DNA from: Octopus vulgaris
Lineage: Eukaryota
NCBI GenBank assembly: GCA_951406725.2
Contig: OX597822.1
Location: 98,146,001 to 98,210,000 of the forward strand
Length of the DNA: 64,000 nucleotides
Direction: 5' to 3'
How positions within the stretch are numbered: the stretch's first letter is position 1; each line of letters opens with the position of its first letter. Below are positions 4,538 to 58,070 of the stretch, piece after piece. The translations under genes and the position numbers were made by a program. The notes below the pieces were generated by a model. The model worked only from the letters and a program-made list of their open reading frames with translations, had not been told where the DNA came from and searched no databases.

Positions 4538-4720
4538 TGAGGACGGGTAACCAACGAGAAACTCGAGTCCGTGTGTATCACATAAGGCTAGAGATGGGAA
4601 CAGTGACCTCTCTCGCAAATATTAATCGGAGACAGACTGTGTCATTAGCCAGCCAGAGTAGATGTCTTCCTGGGGATAAAAACAATAGCACTGTCCTGTA
4701 TAGGACGCTACATTCAGTTG

Positions 4721-4721
<1 letters not shown>
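4538..4721 (+). mobile_element. 5'-truncated copy of the HHR-bearing 346-nt element family
   Basis: Homologous to the reverse complement of 11872-12059; begins TGAGGA cggg taacca acga GAAA ctcgag TC cgtgtgt; (TA)n on both sides. Confidence 0.75.
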
Positions 4722-4757
<36 letters not shown>

Positions 4758-6377: not shown

Positions 6378-6894
6378 ATGTTTGGGAGAATATGCAAAAA
6401 TATAATAATCAATATCAGTTAACGATCTAATGCAACAGCAATCGAACTTTGCAGCATCTAAAAAGGTCGACGATGCAAAGCTTTATTGACAGTTTCTTTA
6501 GTCCACAAGGAACAAAACATGTTTTATTGTCTCCTGACGGAAACAAATGTCATTATATACAAATGAACAGACGAAAACAAAATGAGTTTCTTTTCTATGA
6601 CTTTTTAATACATCTTCTGTTCTGTTCTTTTTTTTTTCTCAGCTGATGTAATTTTAACAACCTACTCATTTCCTCGCTTCCAACAGAATAACAAAAGTAG
6701 TAATTAGTCTCGGGAAATGTTTTAAGCTATAATTAGCTATCTTATACAAGTTATAAATAAAATTTTAAGCAAAATATATTGGGTAATTTTAATCGCAGCA
6801 GTTTCTAATATCACCAAAAGTGCTCATCCATATATATATATTGCTATTTGCACATGCTACGCAATGCATAAGGATAAACATGGGATATGCATAC

Positions 6895-6947
<53 letters not shown>

Positions 6948-7023: not shown

Positions 7024-7300
7024 TATATACACAAAATATATATATATACAAAGTATATAATACATATATATACATATATATATATATACATATATATACA
7101 TACATATATATATATATACATATATATACATACATATATATATATACATATATACATACATATATATATATACATACATATAACATATATATACATATAC
7201 ATATATATACATATATATATACATATATATATACATATATATATATATATACATATATATACATATATATGATGCGCGCGCATACACATAGGTGTTTGTG

Positions 7301-7367
<67 letters not shown>

Positions 7368-7368
7368 C

Positions 7369-7415
<47 letters not shown>

Positions 7416-7428
7416 TATATATATATAT
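6895..7428. repeat. (TA)n/(TACATA)n microsatellite tract
   Basis: Directly visible; source of spurious YI-repeat ORFs. Confidence 0.95.
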
Positions 7429-9642
7429 GCAAACTGGGAAGCGATCAATAATGATCTTGCACAAGTCGATTGGTCCTTCACGCACACATACACACCCACT
7501 AACATCAAAAAGTCCTGGCAGTCACTTGTAGACACCATCACGAACATATGTGCAAGACACACCCCATTAACATCTGCAAACAAATCTAAGTGTCGAATCC
7601 CTAGAAATAGAAAATCTCTCATAAGGAAAATTAAAAGAATCAACAAAAAGATCAACATGCTGAAATACTGTCAACAGCAACACACCAACCTGACTGCCAT
7701 CTCGTCGCTAGAGATTAAAAAACATAAACTCCAAAACAACATGATGTCTATCATCAATAGTCAGCGAAGAGCTGAAGAGGCCTGGGCCATTGAGAAGATC
7801 AAACTCAATCTCAAAGTGTTCTTTTCATTTGCAAAAAAACACAGAGTCACTGGTTCTACTGTTGGCCCTCTGATTGATGAAAATGGTATTCTTCAAGACA
7901 ATGCCAAAACCATGGGAGAAATATTGCAGAAACAATATTGCTCTGTTTTCAGCAATCCTGATATGACTGATCTGGGCTGTATCAGTGATGTTACTCCCCA
8001 ATACACTTTATCGGACATAACATTTGGCGCTCCTGATGTCTTAGCAGCAATAAAGGAAATGAAGCATAATTCAGCAGTAGGTCCCGATAGGTTCCCTGCT
8101 TGTGTCTTGAAGATGTGTCAAAACCAACTTGCACCCCCTCTAGCCAATCTGTGGCGGAACTCATTGGATGCTGGATATATACCAGAAGACCTTCTATCCC
8201 AGTCTGTTGTCCCAGTTTTCAAAAAAGGAAACAAATCGCTTGCCGTGAATTACCGTCCAATCTCACTCACCTCTCATATCATCAAGGTATTTGAGAGGGT
8301 GCTGAGATCGCGTATGACTCACTTCCTTGAGAGTCATAATATGCTGAACCCCAACCAGCATGGATTCCGTAATGGGAGAGATTGCCTGACGCAGCTACTG
8401 CATCATTTTGATGACATTTTGAGAGCCTTGGGAGAGGGTTCCAACACTGATGTCATCTACCTTGATTTCAGCAAGGCCTTTGACAGGGTTGATCATAAGA
8501 TCCTTCTGAGAAAGCTGTCCAATATTGGTGTCACTGGAAAGCTGCTGCAATGGATCAAGTGCTTCCTCTCTAACAGAACCCAACATGTTGTAGTCGAAGG
8601 AGTCAAATCCAGCCCAGCCAAAGTCAGCAGTGGTGTCCCACAAGGCACTGTGTTGGGCCCACTTCTCTTCATCATCTACATAAATGATATTACTGACACC
8701 ATCAAACACAGCAACATCAGAACCTTCGCTGATGATTCCAAGCTCCAGAAGGTCATCAATGGCGTGGATGACCGAATAAACCTTCAGTCAGACCTACTAG
8801 CTGTTGTCCAATGGGCGGAAAAGAATAACATGTTGCTAAATGAAGACAAATTCGAACTGATCCACTTTGGAAGAGAGGACGCTCTGAAACTCCCATACTC
8901 TCTTCCTTCTGGAGAAATTCTCATGGCATCCAACAACATCAGAGACCTGGGAGTAACAGTGGACAACAACATAAGCTGGGCTACACATATAAGCAGCAAA
9001 GTTGACATGGCCCGCAGAATGTGTTCCTGGATTCTCAGAACCTTCCAGTCGAGAGATTCCCACGCTATTATCCTTCTCTTCTCCACTTTTGCCCGACCCC
9101 ACCTTGAATACTGCTGTCCACTGTGGTCTCCCTACACAAAACAAAATATTATGAGAATTGAAGCTCCCCAAAGGTCAATCACAAAAAAGATAGATGGCAT
9201 GTCAGACCTTGACTACTGGGGTAGACTAGAGAAGCTGAAATTGTATTCACTCCAACGACGCCGTGAACGCTACATTATCTGTATGATGTGGAAAATATTC
9301 CATCAGCACTGTCCGAATGATGTTGGCATCACCTTCAAAATGCATCCAAGGCTTGGACCACGTGCCATCCGTCCACAACAAAAATCTAAATCGCATCACA
9401 TAACGACAATACGGCACAACTATTTCACCTCAATTGGACCCGCTCTCTTCAACATTACACCAGGACACGTCAAAAAAGAAACTGACCACACAAAATTCAA
9501 GAAGTCTTTGGACAAATTCCTTCAAACAGTACCGGACAAACCATCCACACCGGATATGTCTCCGCAAACAATAACTCTCTGCTCGAATGGGCCTTGGTGC
9601 CCAAATCCTGAACTGAAAGACTTCGCCAGGTGGTGCTATTAA
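7429..9642 (+). CDS. LINE ORF2 fragment: linker + reverse transcriptase (no endonuclease); probable 1-nt frameshift near 9549
   Basis: Open frame extends 76 codons upstream of the ATG at 7657; motifs [54 protein letters not shown]; the twin copy ends [20 protein letters not shown]. Confidence 0.9.
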
Positions 9643-11300: not shown

Positions 11301-11340
11301 GACTTTAGTTTCTGGGTGGTTAACCGTCTTCAGCGTGTGT
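11301..11340 (-). ncRNA. Type I minimal hammerhead, 5' portion ending at the GUC cleavage triplet
   Basis: acacacg CTGAAGA cggt taacca ccca GAAA ctaaag TC, followed by unrelated flank. Confidence 0.7.
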
Positions 11341-11466
11341 TAATCACTGGCTAGTTATGAAAACTCATTCCACTCGCAAAATACTTCATACTTTTCTAGC
11401 GACTCACCGTCGCTGGTCTCGTAAAAGAGAGATATGTTATATTAAATCTCTGAGCGAGATATAAAC

Positions 11467-11844
11467 AGGCGCAGGAGTGGGTGTGTGGTAAGTAGCTTAT
11501 TTACCAACCACATGGTTCCGGGTTCAGTCCCACTGCGTGGCACCTTGGGCAAGTGTCTTCTACTATAGCCTTGGGCCGACCAAAGCCTTGTGATTGGATT
11601 TGGTAGATGGAAACTGAAAGAAGCCCGTCGTATATATGTGTATATATATATATGTTTGTGTGTGTGTATTTGTCCCCCTAGTATTGCTTGACAACCGATG
11701 CTGGTGTGTTTATGTCCCCGTTACCGATAGAATAAGTACTGGGCTTACAAAAGAATAAGTCCTGGGGTCGAGTTGCTCGATTAAAGGCGGTGCTCCAGCA
11801 TGGCCGCAGTCAAATGACTGAAACAGGTAAAAGAGTAAAAGAGT
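11467..11844 (+). mobile_element. SINE family B nested in the HHR element
   Basis: Full head and tail; AACAG duplicated at 11464-11468 and 11845-11849 (short candidate TSD). Confidence 0.92.
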
Positions 11845-12020
11845 AACAGTACGAATTATAAAATATATTTGCCAACTAAATGTGGTATCCTGTACAGGAC
11901 AGTGCTACTGTTGTTTTTTAGTTCCAGGAAGACTTCTCCTCCAGCTGGCTAAAGACACAGTCTGTGTTCGATTAGTATTTGTGAGGGAGGTCATCGCTTC
12001 CATCTCTAGCCTTACGTGAT

Positions 12021-12067
12021 ACACACGGACTCGAGTTTATGGGTGGTTACCCATCCTCAGCGTGTGT
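12021..12067 (-). ncRNA. Type I minimal hammerhead ribozyme motif (G12 mutated to U in this copy)
   Basis: ACACACG CTGAGGA TGGG-taacca-CCCA tAAA CTCGAG TC CGTGTGT: 7-bp stem I, 4-bp stem II, palindromic stem III; sister copies at 11301 and 4538 retain GAAA. Confidence 0.78.
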
Positions 12068-12200
12068 TAATCACTGGCTATTATATTAGTTGATGTTGAA
12101 ATTTTAACAAATCTGTTACTTATTACCCTTATCCCTGATATTGCATATATAAACAAGATATTTACATTTATGAACAATATACTGTAGAACGGTATAGCAA

Positions 12201-15521: not shown

Positions 15522-15935
15522 TTTTTTCCTTGAACTCTCAATTTTTTTCCCATTTTCGCCTCGTTTGTTTATAAATTTATTTCACGCCAGACCTTCTCAT
15601 AGTTAATACTTGTGCCTACATTTTCTGTCAGAACCACTTGCCTTCCCGTTTACCCCAAACTCGCGCTCACTCTCTAACGTCCTAACTTCCACGCTCTACT
15701 CACACACAAACCAACGCTTCACACTCGGGTAACACCCACCACAATAATTCTACACTTTACACATTTCTTCTCACCAATAAACACCCCAACAAACCACACT
15801 CACACCACTTGCCCAATATGCTAAAAACTCCATATACAAACATCCCACCCTCTCATTTCTTAATACCATCATAGAACAGCATTCCTATCTGGCAACCCAG
15901 TATTTTTTTCTCTTCATATTCAAGTTTTCTAATTC
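15522..15935 (+). repeat. Near-identical direct duplicate of ~13705-14118 beside the gap
   Basis: Same sequence apart from a few indels and substitutions. Confidence 0.9.
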
Positions 15936-20424
<4,489 letters not shown>

Positions 20425-20580
20425 ATTTTACTTCGTTTTTGGATTTGGTTTGCAACATTCTTTATGTGAGATCGTGCGTTTAAACATATTCTGTTGTGTC
20501 TGGGGAAAGTCATTCTCTTTTGGTGCCTTATAATTTAACACACTCACCTGTAAAATTTCCTATCTCTCTTTTTTATCTTT

Positions 20581-20617
20581 CTAAAATTTTCGTTGCGTCT
20601 AGCAACCTTTTCAATAG
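20581..20617 (-). ncRNA. Minimal hammerhead-like motif, U3-A8 core variant
   Basis: CTA TTGAAAA g GTTGC-tagac-GCAAC GAAA AT TT TAG: 3-bp stem I, 5-bp stem II, palindromic AAATTT stem III; located where a Penelope pLTR is expected. Confidence 0.62.
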
Positions 20618-21344
20618 TTTTGACTGTTCGTTACGCACACTGCGTTCCTTTTTGTTCGTTTGTGTGCATGTATGTGGATCAGTGTGTGTGTGTGTTTGTG
20701 CCTGTACATACATGCATGTATGTGTGTGTTCCTATACTTGCATGTCTTATGTATGTATGCATGTGTGTATACATGTATGTGTGTGCATATGTATATATAT
20801 ATATATATATGTGTGTACGTTTCTATGTATGTATTCTCCATATTCATGCGTTCGCATGTCCGTATTTGTGTTTTCATCCATGTGTGTGTGTGTGTGTGTA
20901 TGTGTGCGTATCTGTGTTTGTATATGTGTGTGTGTGTACCTCTGTCTCCTTGTGTGTGCATGTGCGTATGTGTGTGTAATTTTGCAACTATGTACCGTGT
21001 TTGTATGAATGGATGCGCATCTCCATATGTGTGGACACATGTCTCCATATGTGTCCTTGTGTGAAGTAAAATGTGTGTGTATATATAGTTATGTGTTTCA
21101 GTCTTCATTTGCGTATGTGTGCTTGTCTGTTCATATAACCTATGTACCTATCCGTCTGTATGTTGATCTGTTTATTTTCATATCCATATGCTTACATACA
21201 TGTGCATATACATATACTACCCCCATACATACATCTATCTATATAACAGCCTACTAACTATTCTACTCTACCTGTGTAAACTGTGGGTATGGGGGTATGA
21301 TATCTACTATGTATATTTCCTATTTAGTATTGGGGAAGTTTCAT

Positions 21345-24300
21345 TTATAAGGACGTACTCCCGTATTTGTCTGAGTGTTGGGATTTTGGGTGCTTGGATA
21401 AGATGCGGATGTCAAGTTGACCCAGGTTGCCTCCATGATGGTCTTTGGCATGTTGGTAGAGTATGGAGGACTGTTTTTTGTCGTCATATTGTCTCTGATG
21501 ATCATTTAGTCGTTCCGCTATGCTTCGAGATGTCTCCCCTAAGTATGTCATGTTCATGTCTTTACAAGCACCTTCTATGCATCTTATGCTGTAAACTACA
21601 TTTCTAGTTCTACAGTTAATGCCAGGGCTAATCCTACATACCATGCAGTTATCATTGGTGCATATGGTATTCTTAAAGGAGTACGTCCTACATAGTTGTG
21701 ATCTGACGGAGTTCCCTGGCTTTTCAACAATCTTAATGTTGAGTTTGGTCTCCTTCAGAGCTTTTCTAAATCTACGGGCTAGTTCTCCATGGGCTGTGGC
21801 CTCTACAAACATCACTCCTTGATATTTGTCGGTTTTATACCACAGGTTCATCCTGTTTGCTTTGTCACAAGTTACTTGTATCCTATCCCAGTCTTTGTTT
21901 CTATATCTAGGGCAGGTACCACTGGTATCATTACGTATAATGTTGTCTAATTTCTTTCTAGCCCCACTGTATACTCGAACCCTATCTTTCTGATCATATC
22001 CAGAGAACTGCATGTGGTGCATGAAGTTCTGTATATGTTTTTTCATTTCATAGGGTTCGCATTGTGGGGACACATTGTTCATTATTCTAACAAAGTCTGC
22101 TATTAGTATGTTAATTTTCATGTTGTGTGACAAAGCTGAGTTCTTGTGAACAACATATTTTGAAGCTATGGGTTTCATGTAATAGGAGTGGAGGAGCTGC
22201 ACTCTACTGTTCACAGTCTCTAACCAAAGTTCAGTATCAAGTACAGGAAGTCTATTGTTGGGGTGCTTAGTGGGGTAATCTATAGTTACCTTGATACTTT
22301 GGTGGATGGAGTTAGCTATTTGCTGGATGCTCTCCATTACGTTCTTCTCAGTTTCTACACAACCATCACTAGAGTTGGTCCTAACTATGATATTAATGTC
22401 ATCTACATATCGTCTGTAGAGCAGAGGGGCTGTGGACTGTTCTGCTAACATTTGCTTAAGTTTTCCGTCCCACCAGGTCATGAAGAGGTCGGCCATATCT
22501 CCAGATACACCAACACCGATGGTTTCACACTGAAACTGCATGTATTGTTTTTATTAAACTTTACTATGTGGTTCTTCACACTGGCCCCTATTGCATGTGC
22601 AATCATTTCTTTCACCTGATTGTTGTTCTCAGGGTCTTGGGTGGGTATGGTCCAGCCATTCCAGCACTCTGTGGTGCTTTTCTTCATTGGTGAAGTGATG
22701 GTGGGTGGTCTTCCCCTCTGTGGCCTGGTGGGTGCAGAATCTACTGAGGTCATGGTCATCTAAATAGTCACTGAGGAGGAGGTCCAGTTCCCTCTTGTTG
22801 ACCTTACAGAACTCCACGTCACTCTCACAGATTACCTGAATGTATTTATCCACAGCAAAATCTGTCAATAGATGGGTAGAGTGAAATCACATCCATACTA
22901 CCCACGACACAATCTGTGAGGTCGTTGGAATGGTTGCAAGGACTGATTTTACTGAGATCTTCCATGCTCACACAGACACCTGGAGACATTGCTATGAGAG
23001 GCCATAACACCTGTGAGAGGAAGTAGGACAGTCTAATAGTTGCTGGAGATATTCGCTCCACAAACTGGTCTGGTTGGGGGACCCATGACAGGGTTTATGT
23101 AGGGTTTGTGGTCTTTGCGTAACCCGTATAGTGTAGGAACATCATTGTTGGATGCTTGGAAATGGTGTGCCGTCCTTTTGATTGGTTGGAGTACGTTGCA
23201 CCACATTCCCATGTATGCATTGAGGAGTTTTTCCACTCTTTCATGTTCCTGTGGTGCAACTTCTCTCATGCTACTGATGTGTTGTCGCATGATCTGGGCA
23301 TAGTTCTGTGGGTTATCTATTGACAGTCTGCCAGACTTGTCCGTAAGGAGGTACACTAATTCTCTGTCCCTAATTCGCTGTTTCAGTTTTTGTAGGCCTT
23401 TGTCAAAAGATGGACTGATTTAATGGATCCCCTCCTCACTGTGTTTTTTAGTGGATTTGTTGTATCGGTGTAAGATATGGCGGGGTCTATTTGTATCTAA
23501 GAAGATCTTTGCTTTTGTTTCACTGTCAATTTGGGGTGAGATACATAACATTTTGTTAAAGGGTAAGTCTGTGGGGTAGATCCTTGTCATAAGATTTCTT
23601 GCTAGAGTTATAGAAGACAGAGTGTAGAGTGTTATTATCGTTCTGGCTGTTGTTGTTATAGTTACTGGCATTGTTGTTGTTGTTGCTGGTGGCAGTGCTT
23701 GTGCTGTGCCTATTGTTGTCATTGTTGGTAGTGGTGTGGAGGATGTGGTTGGTGTTGTTGTCCGTGTGTGGGATGTTGTTGTTACTGTTGCTATCATCAT
23801 TGATACTGTTGTTGTTATTATAACAGTTGTTTCTATTTCGAACGCTTGTGTTGTTGTTATAGTTGGCTGAGTAAGGAATGTTGTTGTTGTTGTTGTTGTT
23901 ATTGTTATTGCCACTATTGTTGTTGTCATCAACACTGCTATTGTTATTTTGTTTTTTTCTTATGTTTCTGTTGTTGTTGTATTGTCCTAACCTCCATCTT
24001 AATTTTAAGAACGTTTTTTCAATCTCAGATAGGCAATCAATTTTTCTGACCTTTTTATACGTAGCGAATTTTGGTGGCAACTCTAAAGCGTGCATTTCAT
24101 CTGTATCTAGCTGTACTGAACCAAATATTGCAGAGGTGTAATTGATGTTGATGTTGATTGTGGTAATGTTTTCCGGTGTCCTGGCGTTGAAGTCCTCTGG
24201 TAGTTAACATTCTGACATGACAATCCCGTCGATATTGTTTGGGTATTTGTAATGATTCCTACCATGCTGGGAACGTTGTTGTTGCTATTTCATCCACTTG

Positions 24301-25102
24301 AGTTTATCGTTGAAGTGTTTGTTACAGGTATGGTTAACTCGGCGATATTCTTGGGTGGGAGGCGCAATGGCCCAGTGGTTAGTGCAGCGGACTCGCGGTC
24401 ATAGGATCGCGGTTTCGATTCCCAGACCGGGCGTTGTGAGTGTTTATTGAGCGAAAACACCTAAAAGTTCCATGAGGCTCCGGCAGGGGATCCCTGCTGT
24501 GCTCTTTCACCACAACTTTCTCTCACTCTTACTTCCTGTTTCTGTTGTACCTGTATTTCAAAGGGCCGACCTTGTCATTTTCTGTGTCACGCTGAATATC
24601 CCCGAGAACTACGTTAAGGGTACACGTGTCTGTGGAGTGCTCAGCCACCTACACGTTAATTTCACGAGCAGTCTGTTCCGTTGATTCGGATCAACCGGAA
24701 CCCTCGTCGCCGTAACCGACGGAGTGCTTCCATTCATTCTTGGGTGTTTGTCATGAACCTGTCTCTTTCGTGTCGAGTAGTGGTGTTTTTTAGTTCATGC
24801 AGCAGGAATGTGTCACGTTTTTGGTACGGGTTGATTTCTGTGTGTATTTTCTTTTTCGTGTTTTGTAACATCGTGTGTTTTAGTTTTCTTGATTGATGTT
24901 CTGAGAGTCCTAGCCGTTTGATAGAAGAATTGACACATTTTGTGTATAGCTTGGAGGAGATGCATGTTTTAATGAAGTGGAGCTGCCGGGTAGCTATCTT
25001 GATTTCTATACAGCACACGGTGTTTCTCAGCGTCTTGCTAGCTTGGGCAAAGCTTATTTTATTTCGTTTTTGGATTTGGTTTGCAAGATTCTTCATGTGC
25101 AT
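21345..25102 (-). pseudogene. Frameshifted Penelope RT + GIY-YIG endonuclease ORF
   Basis: TDKSGR, LYGLRKDHK..PPTRPV, GSMDVISLYPSI, YRRYVDDI, LPVLD, C-x4-C-x2-C linker, NVVYSIRC...YLGETSRSIAERLNDH; interrupted by an (AAC)n expansion and a SINE. Confidence 0.9.
24358..24735 (+). mobile_element. SINE family A nested in the Penelope ORF, 11-bp TSD
   Basis: ATTCTTGGGTG at 24347-24357 and 24736-24746. Confidence 0.93.
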
Positions 25103-25139
25103 TCTTGTGTTAAAGCATATTCTGTTGTGTATTGTAGTT

Positions 25140-44580: not shown

Positions 44581-45009
44581 ATATATATATACATATACAT
44601 ATGAATAGGTACATGCATATATATGTGCATATGCCCACAAACATTCATATAATACATACATTTGTGTGTGTATATTTGTATATGCATATGTGCACACACA
44701 TACACGTATGTAAGTAAATGTATATATTGGTATCTATACATGTACTTGGTCTAAGATCTTTGTTGACAGGTCATTAACTTGTCTTAAGTCTAACAACTCA
44801 ACTGGTAGGCTTAAATACGGTAGCTGACATGCTTTCGTGTAATGGGTAGTAGACATACTGTTGAATTTCCATCGGAAATTTTAGAAGTTTGAGCATCTTC
44901 TATAGTAAACATATATATGTTTTTGGGAAATGTTTTTGGTAAAATCATAGACAATCGACTTCTTAGTCCACACAATACATGCATGCGTATGTATATACGC
45001 ATATGCTTT

Positions 45010-45089
45010 TACATCTACATATATACATACATATATATACCTATGACTATATATATATTCAAATACATACGGAAATAAATGTATGTGCC

Positions 45090-45138
<49 letters not shown>

Positions 45139-46453
45139 GCATATATATACATATATATATACCTATGACTATATATATTCAAATACATAGGGAAATAAAT
45201 GTATGTGCCTATGTGTATATATATATATATATATATGCATATATATACATATGCATATATATACATATATATATATATACATATACATATGCATATATAT
45301 ACATATATACATATGCATATATATACATATATACATATGCATATATATACATATATATATGCATATATACATATACATATGCATATATATACATATATAC
45401 ATATACATATGCATATATATACATATATACATATATATACATATATACATATGCATATATATACATATATACATATACATATATGCATATATATACATAT
45501 ATACATATACATATATGCATATATATACATATATACATATACATATATACATATATATATACATATATACATATATATATACATATATATACATATACAT
45601 ATATACATATACATATATACATATATACATATATATATATATACATATATACATATATATATATACATATATACATATATATATACATATACATATATAC
45701 ATATATATATATACATATATACATATATACATATATATATATATACATATATATATACATATATATGTATACATATATATATATATGTATACATATATAC
45801 ATATATATGTATACATATATACATATATATGTATACATATATACATATATATGTATACATATATACATATATACATATATATGTATACATATATACATAT
45901 ATATGTATACATATATACATATATATGTATACATATATACATATATACATATATATGTATACATATATACATATATATATATATATTACATATATATATA
46001 CATATATATATACATATATACATACATATATATATATACATATATACATATATATGTATACATATATACATATATACATATATATGTATACATATATACA
46101 TACATATATATACATATATACATACATATATATACATATATACATACATATATATACATATATACATACATATATATATACATATATACATACATATATA
46201 TATACATATATACATACATATATATATATACATATATACATACATATATACATACATATATACATACATATATATATATACATATATACATACATATATA
46301 TATATACATATATACATACATATATATATATACATATATACATACATATATATATATACATATATACATACATATATATATACATATATATATACACATA
46401 TATACATACATATATATATATACACCTATATACATACACATATATATATATAC

Positions 46454-46484
<31 letters not shown>

Positions 46485-46613
46485 TACATATACATACATA
46501 CATATATATACATATACATACATACATATATATACATATACATACATACATATATATATATACATACATACATATATATATACATATATATATATATACA
46601 TATATATATATAC

Positions 46614-46674
<61 letters not shown>

Positions 46675-46759
46675 TATATACATATATATATACATATATA
46701 TATACATATATATATATACATATATATATATACATATATATATATACATATATATATAC

Positions 46760-46826
<67 letters not shown>

Positions 46827-47205
46827 CATACATATATATATATATACATACATATATATATATATACATACATATATATATATATACATACATACATATA
46901 TACATATATATATATACATACATATATATATATATACATACATACATATATATATATATACATACATACATATATATATATATACATACATACATATATA
47001 TATACATACATACATATATATATACATACATACATATATATATATACATACATACATATATATATATATACATACATACATATATACATACATACATATA
47101 TATATACATACATACATACATATATATATATGCATACATACATATATATATATGCATACATACATATATATACATACATACATACATATACATACATACA
47201 TACAT

Positions 47206-47238
<33 letters not shown>

Positions 47239-47366
47239 TACATACATACATATAGATACATATATATACATACATATATACATACATATATACATACATA
47301 TACACACATATATACATACATATACTTACATCTGTACATATATACATATACATATATACATATATA
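45010..47366. repeat. ~2.3-kb (TA)n/(TACA)n tract
   Basis: Directly visible. Confidence 0.95.
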
Positions 47367-47370
47367 CTCA

Positions 47371-47583
47371 TTACTCTTTACTCTTTTACTTGTTTCAGTC
47401 ATTTGACTGCGGCCATGCTGGAGCACCGCCTTTAGTCGAGCAAATCGACCCCGGGACTTATTCTTTGTAAGCCCAGTACTTATTCTATCGGATTTCTTTT
47501 GCCGAACCGCTAGGTGACGGTGTCGTAAACACACCAGCATCGGTTGTCAAGCAATGCTAGGGGGGACAAACACAGACATACAA

Positions 47584-47639
<56 letters not shown>

Positions 47640-47795
47640 ATATATACGACAGGCTTCTTTCAGTTTCCGTCTACCAAATCCACTCACAAGACATTGGTCG
47701 GCCCGGGGCTATAGCAGAAGACACTTGCCCAAGATGCCACGCAGTGGGACTGAACCCGGAACCATGTGGTTGGTAAGCAAGCTACTTACCACACA
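47371..47795 (-). mobile_element. SINE family B, young, head slightly truncated
   Basis: Highly similar to the reverse complement of 10866-11247. Confidence 0.92.
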
Positions 47796-48176
47796 TATAT
47801 ACATATATATATACATATATACATATATATATGTATATATAAACACACATATACATATATACATATATGTATATATAAACACACATATACATATATACAT
47901 ACATATATATATAAACACACATATACAAATATACATACATATATATATAAACACACATATACATATATACATATATAAATACATATATATATATATATAT
48001 ATATATACATACACATATATATAAACACATATATACATACACATATATATAAACACATATATACATATATATATAAACACATATATACATATATATATAA
48101 ACACATATATACATATATATATAAACACATATATACATATATATATAAACACATATATACATATATATATAAACAC

Positions 48177-48226
<50 letters not shown>

Positions 48227-48823
48227 ACATATATACATATATACATATATACATACATATATACATACATATATATATGCATATTCACATATGCATATTT
48301 TACTTACACACACACACACACAAACATGCACATACATTTAGTAGTTATCGATATAGAAAAACACAGGTGATCACAGCTGAAAACTCATATTAGTCTGATT
48401 AACCTCGTCCGACGAGAGGAGAAATATCATGTTTAAGAAATATACACGTTTCCAGTCATTGAGGAAACCTCTAGCTTCCGGCTCGATCTATTTCACCATT
48501 TTTTTTTATTTATTCGCTATATATAAGAGATTTCCTCTCCGTTAAGATGCTACTTTGAAAATGACAGACAGTCAAGCAGACAGACAGAGAGACAGACAGA
48601 CACACACACACACACACACACATACTGCCAGCTCCTTGAGTTAAGCAGATACTAATAGAAAGATACCTTATACTCTTATACTTTCAGTGAGGATATTGAT
48701 GAGTTGCGTCCGTTGAATTTTTGGCGACTGCTGTACTTCGTTCGTATTTAAGAGAAAGAATACAAATCTTTCAAAACTATACCACGGCACCCCCATTTTG
48801 GAGGGATTTCTCTCGCTTTGACT

Positions 48824-55969: not shown

Positions 55970-58070
55970 TTATGCAAAACACAAGGAACACACACCCACC
56001 ACCAACTACAAAATCATAAACACAGAGCTCCACACAAAATCTACCTTAATGCTACCTCTGAACAACATAAAATATAATTTAGAACAATGCAAACATCAAA
56101 CAACCCTTACCTCGACATTTCTATTAAATGCACGTGGCATCAACCCATCACTCATTGCCCAAAAATGGAAAATTCCATATATAGAGAGTTGGCTTGCCGA
56201 AACGGCACATTGCTTTCCTTTCTTTTCCTTACTGAAACTCACCTAAAGAGCACACATATCGATACCGAGGTGTAAATATAAGATTTCACCATCATCCGTG
56301 CAGATCGCACAGACCAAAATAAAGTGGGGACAGCCATCTTTCTCCATGACTCCTTTTCAGTTGATGCCAAGGACATATTTTCTAATGGCTATTGTTGAAT
56401 ATCACTATTCAACAAGGCTAAAGACATAATCATTGTTGGTCTTTACAGGTCTCCCCAAGCACCTCTAAAGTGCTGTGAAGAGTGCCTCAGCAAAATCAAG
56501 TCCTTCCTTCAAGCATACAACTCCGGAAATATACTAGTGATGGGTGATTTTAACCTCCCTCATATAAACTGGCCCACAAATATTCTGAAATTAGGCAAAT
56601 GCTCTACATCAGATAAAGTAGCTGCAGAATTACTTTTTAATCTAATGTATAAATTCTTCCTGACTCAGCTACTGCTCGAACCAACAATACAGAATAAAAT
56701 CCTGGATCTAATATTAACCAAACACTCTAGCTCCGTTCACAGTATTTTAGTTGAAAAAACTATCCTCTCAGACCACGATATGTTACTCTGCAATTTTGAT
56801 TTCCGTCATATCAAAACAATCCCAATCCACGACACTTATTTGACAACATAAACTTCCACAAAGCTGATTGGAGAGCAATCAGAAAGGATCTTTCCTTCAT
56901 TGACTGGTCCTTCACTCTCAGTTTCACTCACATTGAGACCGCATGGGAACACTTTGAGAACATTGTCACCTATACCTTCTCAAAACACGCTCCTACGAAA
57001 TCCACTATCACAAACAGAAACCGGCTCCCTAGAAAGAAAAAAGCACTCACCAGGCGCATCAAAAGACTCAGTAAAAATCAAACAATTAAAATACCTCCAC
57101 ATACAACATCCACATTCAACAAAAATGAAAACCTATATTGAAAATGAAAGAGCTGCAGAGGAACAGTGAGTAATCAAAAACATCAATCAGAACTCAAAAA
57201 GTGTTCTACTATTATGCAAATAATCATAGAACCGCTGTCTCACCCATTGGGCCATTGATCGATGATAACGGCATTTCCCAACGCGATGCAAAAGAAATGG
57301 CAGAAATACTGCAGAAACAATACTGCTCTGTCTTTAGTGATTTTACTGATATTGAAGGAAGAGAAGCGAACGAAGTTGATTCCCAACATAAAATATCGGA
57401 CATAACCTTCACTGCCGCAGACATCATAGCATCAATAAATGAGGTCAAATACTATTCTGCTGTAGGCACTGATAGATTGCCCGCTAGTCTCCAGAAGGAA
57501 TGTAGGCACCAACTACCAGTCTGTCTGACCAACCTCCGGAGAAATTCTTTAGGCTCAGGTAATATACCGAAACAGCTCCTAACCCACTTTGTCATCCCGG
57601 TTTTCAAACAGAGAAACTGATCCCTCGCAGTCAACTATCGCCCAATCTCACTCACCTCCCACATCATTAAAGTGTTTGAAATAGTCGTAAGATCAAGGAT
57701 AGCTGGCTTCCTGGAGATCCACAAACTCCTAAATGCAAATCAACATGGCTTTCGCTGTGTCAGGGACTGTTTAACACAGATCTTACACTACATTGAGGAT
57801 ATACTTAAAGCCTTGGGAACAGGTTCGAACTCTGACGTCATATCTTGACTTCAGTAATGCGTTCAACAGGGTTGGCCATAATATCTTACTCTCAAAATTG
57901 GCAAATGTTGGAATCCGTGGAAAACTTCTACACTGGATTGAGTATTTCCTGGCAAATAGAACACAACATGTTATGGTCGATGGAGTTCACTCAAGCCCAG
58001 TAAAAGTTACCAGTGGTGTCCCTGAGGGGGACTGTCTTGGGCTCGCTTGTCTTTATAATATACATAAATG
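55970..58070 (+). mobile_element. Degraded CR1/L2-group LINE with APE endonuclease and 5' half of RT (older relative of 7429-9690)
   Basis: LNARGI, LTETHL, IRADR, GLYRSP, GDFNLPHINW, ILDLILT, SDH; [43 protein letters not shown]. Confidence 0.9.

Follow-up and report, generated by a model that had tools for sequence, protein, structure and literature searches.

The hammerhead repeat at 11301–12080 of the window (the whole stretch of 64,000 nt of Octopus vulgaris DNA analysed here) is real, far beyond what chance would produce. We favour the reading that its unit is an ORF-less dispersed repeat, ending at two internal sites by (TA)n, which is likely to be mobilised in trans by a Penelope-like RT-endonuclease of the Neptune/Nematis type and probably from a circular RNA made by the hammerhead. 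We regard it as very likely that Penelope-like machinery moved the family, and a circular RNA as its probable template. Judged from its sequence, the family would work like a non-LTR retrozyme, as a retrozyme-like, non-autonomous Penelope-like parasite with predicted cleavage and a predicted circle. The original prediction, namely that a non-coding hammerhead unit of ~350 nt is copied, probably by a Penelope-like RT, via its own junction, is backed much more strongly by the family data than by the window.

The window copy (11301–12080, minus strand), identified by sequence, BLAST and profile, is a decayed, SINE-interrupted member of subfamily A that consists of 53 nt and one 352-nt unit. As predicted, two direct hammerhead-like motifs are located on the minus strand, with GUC at 12028 and 11301, 727 nt apart; a SINE sits between them, the 5' end lies about 53 nt upstream of the first GUC, and a third copy is present on the plus strand at 4538–4729. 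The upstream type I motif (12021–12067, minus strand; sequence and alignment) has its predicted cut between 12028 and 12027, from where unit positions 1–184 (11844–12027, minus strand) extend through the usual short 3' end site (about 11855–11860), which is read through here. Next comes a SINE-like insertion of 375 nt (11469–11843, plus strand), antisense to the unit and with a tRNA-like head, and then the remainder of the unit as far as the second GUC (11301–11468, minus strand), with the downstream motif at 11301–11340 (minus strand). The insert, which we take to be a SINE on account of its box A/B motifs, has at least six further copies inside the 64-kb window. Its extent differs from that given originally, where a SINE plus one AACAG (381 nt) left a monomer of 346 nt. 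Because the CTGTT doublet is native to the unit and not a target duplication, the SINE measures 375 nt and the monomer 352 nt. Indeed, a doublet similar to CTGTT is present in 10/10 uninterrupted monomers, and a target duplication is not required to explain the insert.

All three window motifs are damaged, contrary to the intact hammerhead consensus that had been drawn from them. The two motifs of the interrupted copy are 88% identical over 58 nt. TAAA replaces GAAA in the upstream one, which is predicted to be inactive because G12 is T (12039); in the downstream one, the core is intact, loop III is non-palindromic and the 3' strand of stem I is missing or decayed. The second subfamily A insertion of the window (4538–4729, plus strand) is 5'-truncated inside the core, being without the 5' stem I and without C3, and displays the family-typical pattern in that its end is the short site, within (TA)n. 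The motif had also been described as a minimal Penelope-type HHR, whereas by the definitions in the accessible part of PMC4209133 it belongs to the canonical type I of metazoans. The window copy itself, old and mutated, is a product of the family's mobilisation and a dead relic.

Genome searches with subfamily A returned 2,428 and 2,254 first-look candidates in the 2.8-Gb genome. Five queries were used to fetch 141 loci, of which L049 was dropped for having no central profile match, and the remaining loci collapsed into 99 independent insertions. One insertion has been amplified inside a larger repeat, at a spacing of 9–30 kb on contigs C4, C7, C8, C9, C29 and C31, and was counted once (L117, L118, L122, L123, L125, L129–L135, L139, L140). 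Ten natural GUC-to-GUC monomers of 321–359 nt share a mean pairwise identity of 82%. The copies are circular permutations of the unit and cross the junction in 97/99 cases, a proportion raised by the choice of queries, most of which favoured such copies. Their 3' ends cluster at profile positions 160–182 (54/99) and 214–240 (22/99), and the same two clusters appear in the sets unselected for 3' end (31/61 and 15/61, respectively). A (TA)n tract follows the 3' end in 59/99 copies and precedes the 5' end in 28/99, against a background of 222/1,980 windows. An inverted 5' arm is found in 26/99 insertions.

The young and apparently recently active subfamily B was found behind an old Penelope-like copy (L143), inserted in (TA)n at the end of that element. 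It has a period of 352 nt and shares 67% identity with an A monomer, and its copies are mostly 97–100% identical to a natural B monomer. Exact matches genome-wide number 490 for a B 26-mer and 49 for the 33-nt core, with 0 for the reversed controls. The sample comprises 67 independent insertions from 100 loci with 109 segments, and 40 of the loci, from contigs C1 and C4, were taken without selection. The 3' ends of the 109 segments fall at c173 (41), c216 (27) and c219 (7), and (TA)n stands directly after 87 of them. A minor third end at unit position 313, without (TA)n after it, is seen at L209, L214, L215 and L263, which share their downstream flank and probably represent one insertion amplified within another repeat. 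The six natural GUC-to-GUC units of B, together with the ten of A, establish that complete double-hammerhead tandems exist, and the copies span at most 2.35 units. The B unit is covered by contigs from four runs presumed to be RNA, three of which also have contigs bridging a hammerhead junction; these contigs are uninformative on the ends, strandedness or circularity of any RNA, and a flanking SINE is present at far higher depth.

More than half of the B insertions (38/67) are arranged head-to-head, and the two arms of these end in a strikingly regular manner: 30 pair a short with a long 3' end, eight have one atypical end, and none pairs short with short or long with long. Under equal site choice, a short and a long end in 30/30 would have a probability of about 7e-10. 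Since the short arm is too short to have supplied the tail in 19/30, the long arm was templated separately. The 26 subfamily A insertions with an inverted arm comprise 12 short-long pairs, no like pairs and 14 with an atypical end. Divergence in B is 3.2% within and 3.3% between insertions, which is uninformative by itself.

The core CUGANGA...GAAA...UH is intact in 45/48 B and 66/91 A instances, proportions that are inflated by loci selected by pattern. In the majority A sequence, the base of stem II is a C-A mismatch (C in 67/91, A in 86/91). Across 36 instances, 34 of them sampled from 139, the hammerhead helices are paired in 89% of cells, compared with 15–57% in slid controls; doubly changed pairs amount to 6/15, which is not beyond shuffles, as 63/500 of these reach the same level. 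When folded as a circle, the natural B monomer reaches −128.6 versus −86.7 ± 4.7 kcal/mol (z −8.9), and for the natural A monomer the fold does not surpass shuffles (z −1.1). Double changes across A and B affect 13/53 predicted pairs versus 2–6 in slid controls, a comparison in which the covariation is mostly one A-versus-B divergence and the structure tested came from the same alignment; many of these changes lie in the long stem I extension that joins the two ends of the unit. By reading of the separate folds, 12–13 of 17 helices are common to A and B, including a modelled pairing between CUGA and loop III that would block the monomeric core. The active monomer fold of B is predicted to be disfavoured (−8.7 versus a minimum of −16.2 kcal/mol, 7.5 above it), and an intermolecular stem III of 8 bp is predicted for this subfamily. 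The unit has a GC content of 0.42–0.46, the longest ATG ORF in B encodes 56 aa, and the unit length falls within the 150–450 nt range of retrozymes. In Rfam, neither the focal stretch of the window nor a young copy matched a hammerhead at E ≤ 10, and there was none among the best 150 of 407 rows for the whole window, where the top rows were microsatellite-driven miRNA. RF00163 (Hammerhead_1) exceeds its cut-off at six other genomic loci outside those fetched, including C5:6546758, which are probably further hammerhead families.

Two Penelope-like families of the same genome are candidate partners. The older one is represented in the window by a decayed element (20424–25130, minus strand) with an RT, a Cx4CxxC linker and, C-terminally, a GIY-YIG domain, the latter a weak match (E 0.0026); the element carries a 76-nt terminal direct repeat, ends in a TA microsatellite and is physically unlinked to the hammerhead unit. 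Members of this family are 82–93% identical to the window copy. A protein search with the window element returned the older family together with a young one, and a related query gave 10,057 first-look candidates. The young family (L172–L179) has ORFs of 1,310–1,312 aa that are about 99% identical and contain a long asparagine-rich insert, and it is probably still active. All 13 copies examined have their end at either of two sites, which are 56 nt apart, and are followed by (TA)n, and one has short and long arms. The intact young ORF returned no match in searches of Pfam and PDB, and was identified from its motifs, the weak GIY-YIG match in the window copy and look-alikes in the Atlas; the Neptune/Nematis placement of the candidate partner is likewise by motif only (RT with DKSG, Cx4CxxC linker, C-terminal GIY-YIG). 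Profile searches revealed no homology between the unit and the pLTR of the young family, and no match to the 3' regions of the older family. In the absence of unit-pLTR homology, we infer the partner from footprints and age only, and the age match is loose for subfamily A, with 82% pairwise identity against the 82–93% identity of older elements to the window copy.

The young pLTR itself contains a hammerhead-like motif with a non-canonical core (L172, oriented 2063–2372 and 6658–6911), in which C replaces A9 and one additional base precedes stem II; it lies ~125 nt upstream of the short 3' end. The motif occurs 22 times in the fetched loci of the young family and once in a diverged relative (L002 flank), where the hairpin is kept. 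Elsewhere in the window, a second SINE-like insert (about 24350–24740) and an AAC-rich tract lie inside the decayed Penelope-like ORF (23900–24740, minus strand), and kilobase-long degenerate TA/CA microsatellite fields span 15800–20400 and 45000–48300, the first of which holds the end of the decayed element. An open frame of 789 aa (7273–9642, plus strand; RVT_1, E 8.6e-31) is LINE-like, 5'-truncated and microsatellite-flanked, and endonuclease-RT LINE fragments (Exo_endo_phos_2) are located at 56399–57620 (plus strand).

The original model, in which RNAs with ribozyme-generated 3' ends were integrated, does not fit the family. When copy ends are tabulated relative to GUC, as had been proposed, the 3' ends lie 170–220 nt downstream, at two fixed internal sites. 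The exact A pattern ending at GUC occurs at 21 sites, 20 of which run straight on into the unit and one of which does so after a 10-nt deletion, so that 21/21 exact-core A copies continue past GUC, as do 30/30 fetched exact-core B sites. Ends within 5 nt of GUC are confined to 1/99 independent A copies, the window's own, and 0/109 B segments. With ~0.8 expected by chance, such an end is atypical rather than a family rule, and that of the window copy is probably down to chance. Even there, the claim that homology stops precisely after GUC (11301) proves ambiguous, since BLAST goes 9 nt and the profile 4 nt further. The window copy alone, ending at or within 4–9 nt of GUC, may fit the model, to which we attach scarcely any likelihood. 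It is also very improbable, and already largely refuted, that the copies are mere pLTR fragments of an autonomous Penelope-like element. The end signature and the target are indeed those of autonomous elements, and the L143 insertion lies directly behind a Penelope-like ORF, but longer copies run upstream into further units and never into an ORF (flanks of about 1.5 kb), and the unit has no homology to the young pLTR. RT homology is present in only 2/241 unit loci over the same flanks, both of which are the L143 insertion, and (TA)n lies between this insertion and the end of the element itself. We also considered the L143 hammerhead as the element's own ribozyme and rejected this, as it belongs to a separate B insertion in (TA)n at the element end.

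The other alternatives retain a Penelope-like enzyme and differ in the template. Linear self-cleaved monomers could be joined into tandems if the RT jumped from the 5' end of one to the 3' end of another, which would explain read-through without ligation and is favoured by the few arms whose stops lie close to position 1. At ten diagnostic non-CpG positions in B, a test with few insertions and linked sites, a minority allele is common to the tandem passes in 12/15 comparisons (1.2 expected) and to the inverted arms in 23/30 (2.3 expected). The minority alleles shared between passes and arms point to one template, and, although 3/15 tandem comparisons are discordant, they argue against jumping between monomers. 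The 5' truncations at the cut site are not significantly enriched (3/24 arms, p=0.17), and an excess that had been suggested by eye was rejected on this basis; we consider template jumping improbable. A stronger case can be made for an uncleaved read-through tandem transcript as the template, with the hammerhead as inherited baggage or serving another step and with no circle. In the accessible text of PMC11167929, hammerhead cleavage is dispensable for insertion in vitro and no reads end at the cut site, which would allow an uncleaved tandem transcript to serve as template; the substrate there was mainly unprocessed RNA, and hammerhead mutants inserted normally. In keeping with this, the octopus copies indicate that the RT crosses the cut site with no added stops, folding predicts the active monomer to be unfavourable (−8.7 versus −16.2 kcal/mol), and 8/9 Xenopus dimers remained uncleaved in vitro according to the available part of 10.64898/2026.07.22.740005. 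Against it stands the shortness of the arms, the longest of which is 827 nt, with a median of 145 nt and 6/59 above one unit among unselected arms. As no copy made from a linear transcript can exceed its parent in length, copies would become progressively shorter, and something must restore their length. Long arrays that might serve as a source are not seen: none of the 49 exact B cores belongs to a run longer than two, and there is no longer tandem run among the first 100 of 490 listed 26-mer matches. In addition, the core is kept in both subfamilies although the units are only 67% identical. On balance, we regard a read-through template as unlikely. A circle regenerates unit length simply, and a collapsed tandem array may be an alternative source.

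We retain the circular template in the scheme that we propose. Transcription of a copy longer than one unit would produce an RNA in which two hammerheads are predicted to cleave as a dimer via the palindromic stem III, thereby releasing a monomer whose ends would be held by the long extended stem I and then ligated. Judging from the insertion footprints, a Penelope-like protein would nick both strands of a (TA)n tract, and reverse transcription would be primed internally, 173 nt past the cut on one strand and 216–219 nt past it on the other. The copies found in the DNA have variable 5' truncation, extend for up to 2.35 units through the junction and often carry head-to-head short and long arms. 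A bolder and tentative version is that B is an animal retrozyme still active today, with a dimeric Penelope-like RT-endonuclease bound to its circular RNA; the enzyme would prime both nicked (TA)n strands on one RNA, with subunits at 173 and 216, and roll through the ligated junction. If true, a single mechanism would account for the pLTRs and tails of Penelope and for the head-to-head inversions, and an animal retrozyme would have an intact protein identified as its partner.

These findings bear on the identity of the enzyme that mobilises animal retrozymes and on the role of the circle as its possible template. Penelope-like elements have been argued to be the movers from co-occurrence and pLTR homology, as set out in the available parts of PMC7229834 and 10.64898/2026.07.22.740005. 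In the octopus, one genome contains a young hammerhead unit without an ORF and a Penelope-like family that is intact, and both bear the same nucleotide-precise insertion signature. For an assay that the accessible part of PMC11167929 establishes with another Penelope-like enzyme, the pairing offers an RNA found in nature, a protein candidate and predicted sites of priming, and the main value of the young subfamily B and its intact candidate partner is that they make the mobilisation question testable. The strict pairing of short and long arms also touches on the origin of Penelope inversions, for which antisense self-priming was proposed (PMC3846280, available text). We found no description of this hammerhead family in the literature within reach, which takes in few of the subscription papers and repeat databases; "octopus" and "cephalopod" have 0 occurrences in the available main text of PMC7229834, as do "hammerhead", "ribozyme" and "retrozyme" in that of PMC13282606.

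The octopus unit resembles the metazoan non-LTR retrozymes, as described in the accessible portions of PMC7229834 and 10.64898/2026.07.22.740005, in its non-coding ~350-nt length, GC content of 42–46%, canonical type I hammerhead, palindromic 2-bp stem III, partial tandems and highly self-paired predicted circle, as well as in the co-occurrence of Penelope-like elements, which were proposed as partners. It differs in that its copies are dispersed, span at most 2.35 units and mostly less than one, and are not seen in long arrays, in that cleavage and circles are predictions in the octopus, and in its lack of detectable homology to the pLTR of the candidate partner, unlike 24/57 Xenopus families (10.64898/2026.07.22.740005). 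The two-site 3' ends, the (TA)n targeting and the head-to-head arms have no counterpart that we found in the available retrozyme literature. The ORF-less Penelope-type tandem insertions are shared with the non-autonomous Chlamys elements, such as MRC1; in the accessible text of PMC8557442, however, the 3' ends of these are in general similar to those of their autonomous partners, which is not the case for the octopus unit, and most Chlamys are without the canonical hammerhead that this unit carries.

The insertion signature itself is closest to that of Penelope-like elements. For PAc, a Poseidon element of Anolis, the available part of PMC11167929 describes two internal RT start sites, priming of both strands and AT-rich targets, and a tail on one of two inverted arms is known for Penelope-like elements from the accessible parts of PMC3846280 and PMC8557442. 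The octopus unit has this same PAc and Penelope "tail" signature, with two RT starts downstream of the hammerhead, a tail on one arm only, an inverted 5'-truncated arm and an AT-rich target. Unlike PAc, it is without an ORF and has a 352-nt period and a tail of 43–46 nt, and its bipartite arms always use different sites, whereas PAc displayed no strand difference in vitro. The hammerhead-like motif in the pLTR of the candidate partner, with its non-canonical core (C at position 9), is not the hammerhead of the octopus unit. Rather, the likeness of this partner is to Neptune/Nematis, as characterised in the available text of PMC8557442, with which it shares the DKSG-containing RT, the Cx4CxxC linker and the C-terminal GIY-YIG domain, and it is for a linker of the Cx4CxxC type that a bias towards (TA)n has been proposed there.
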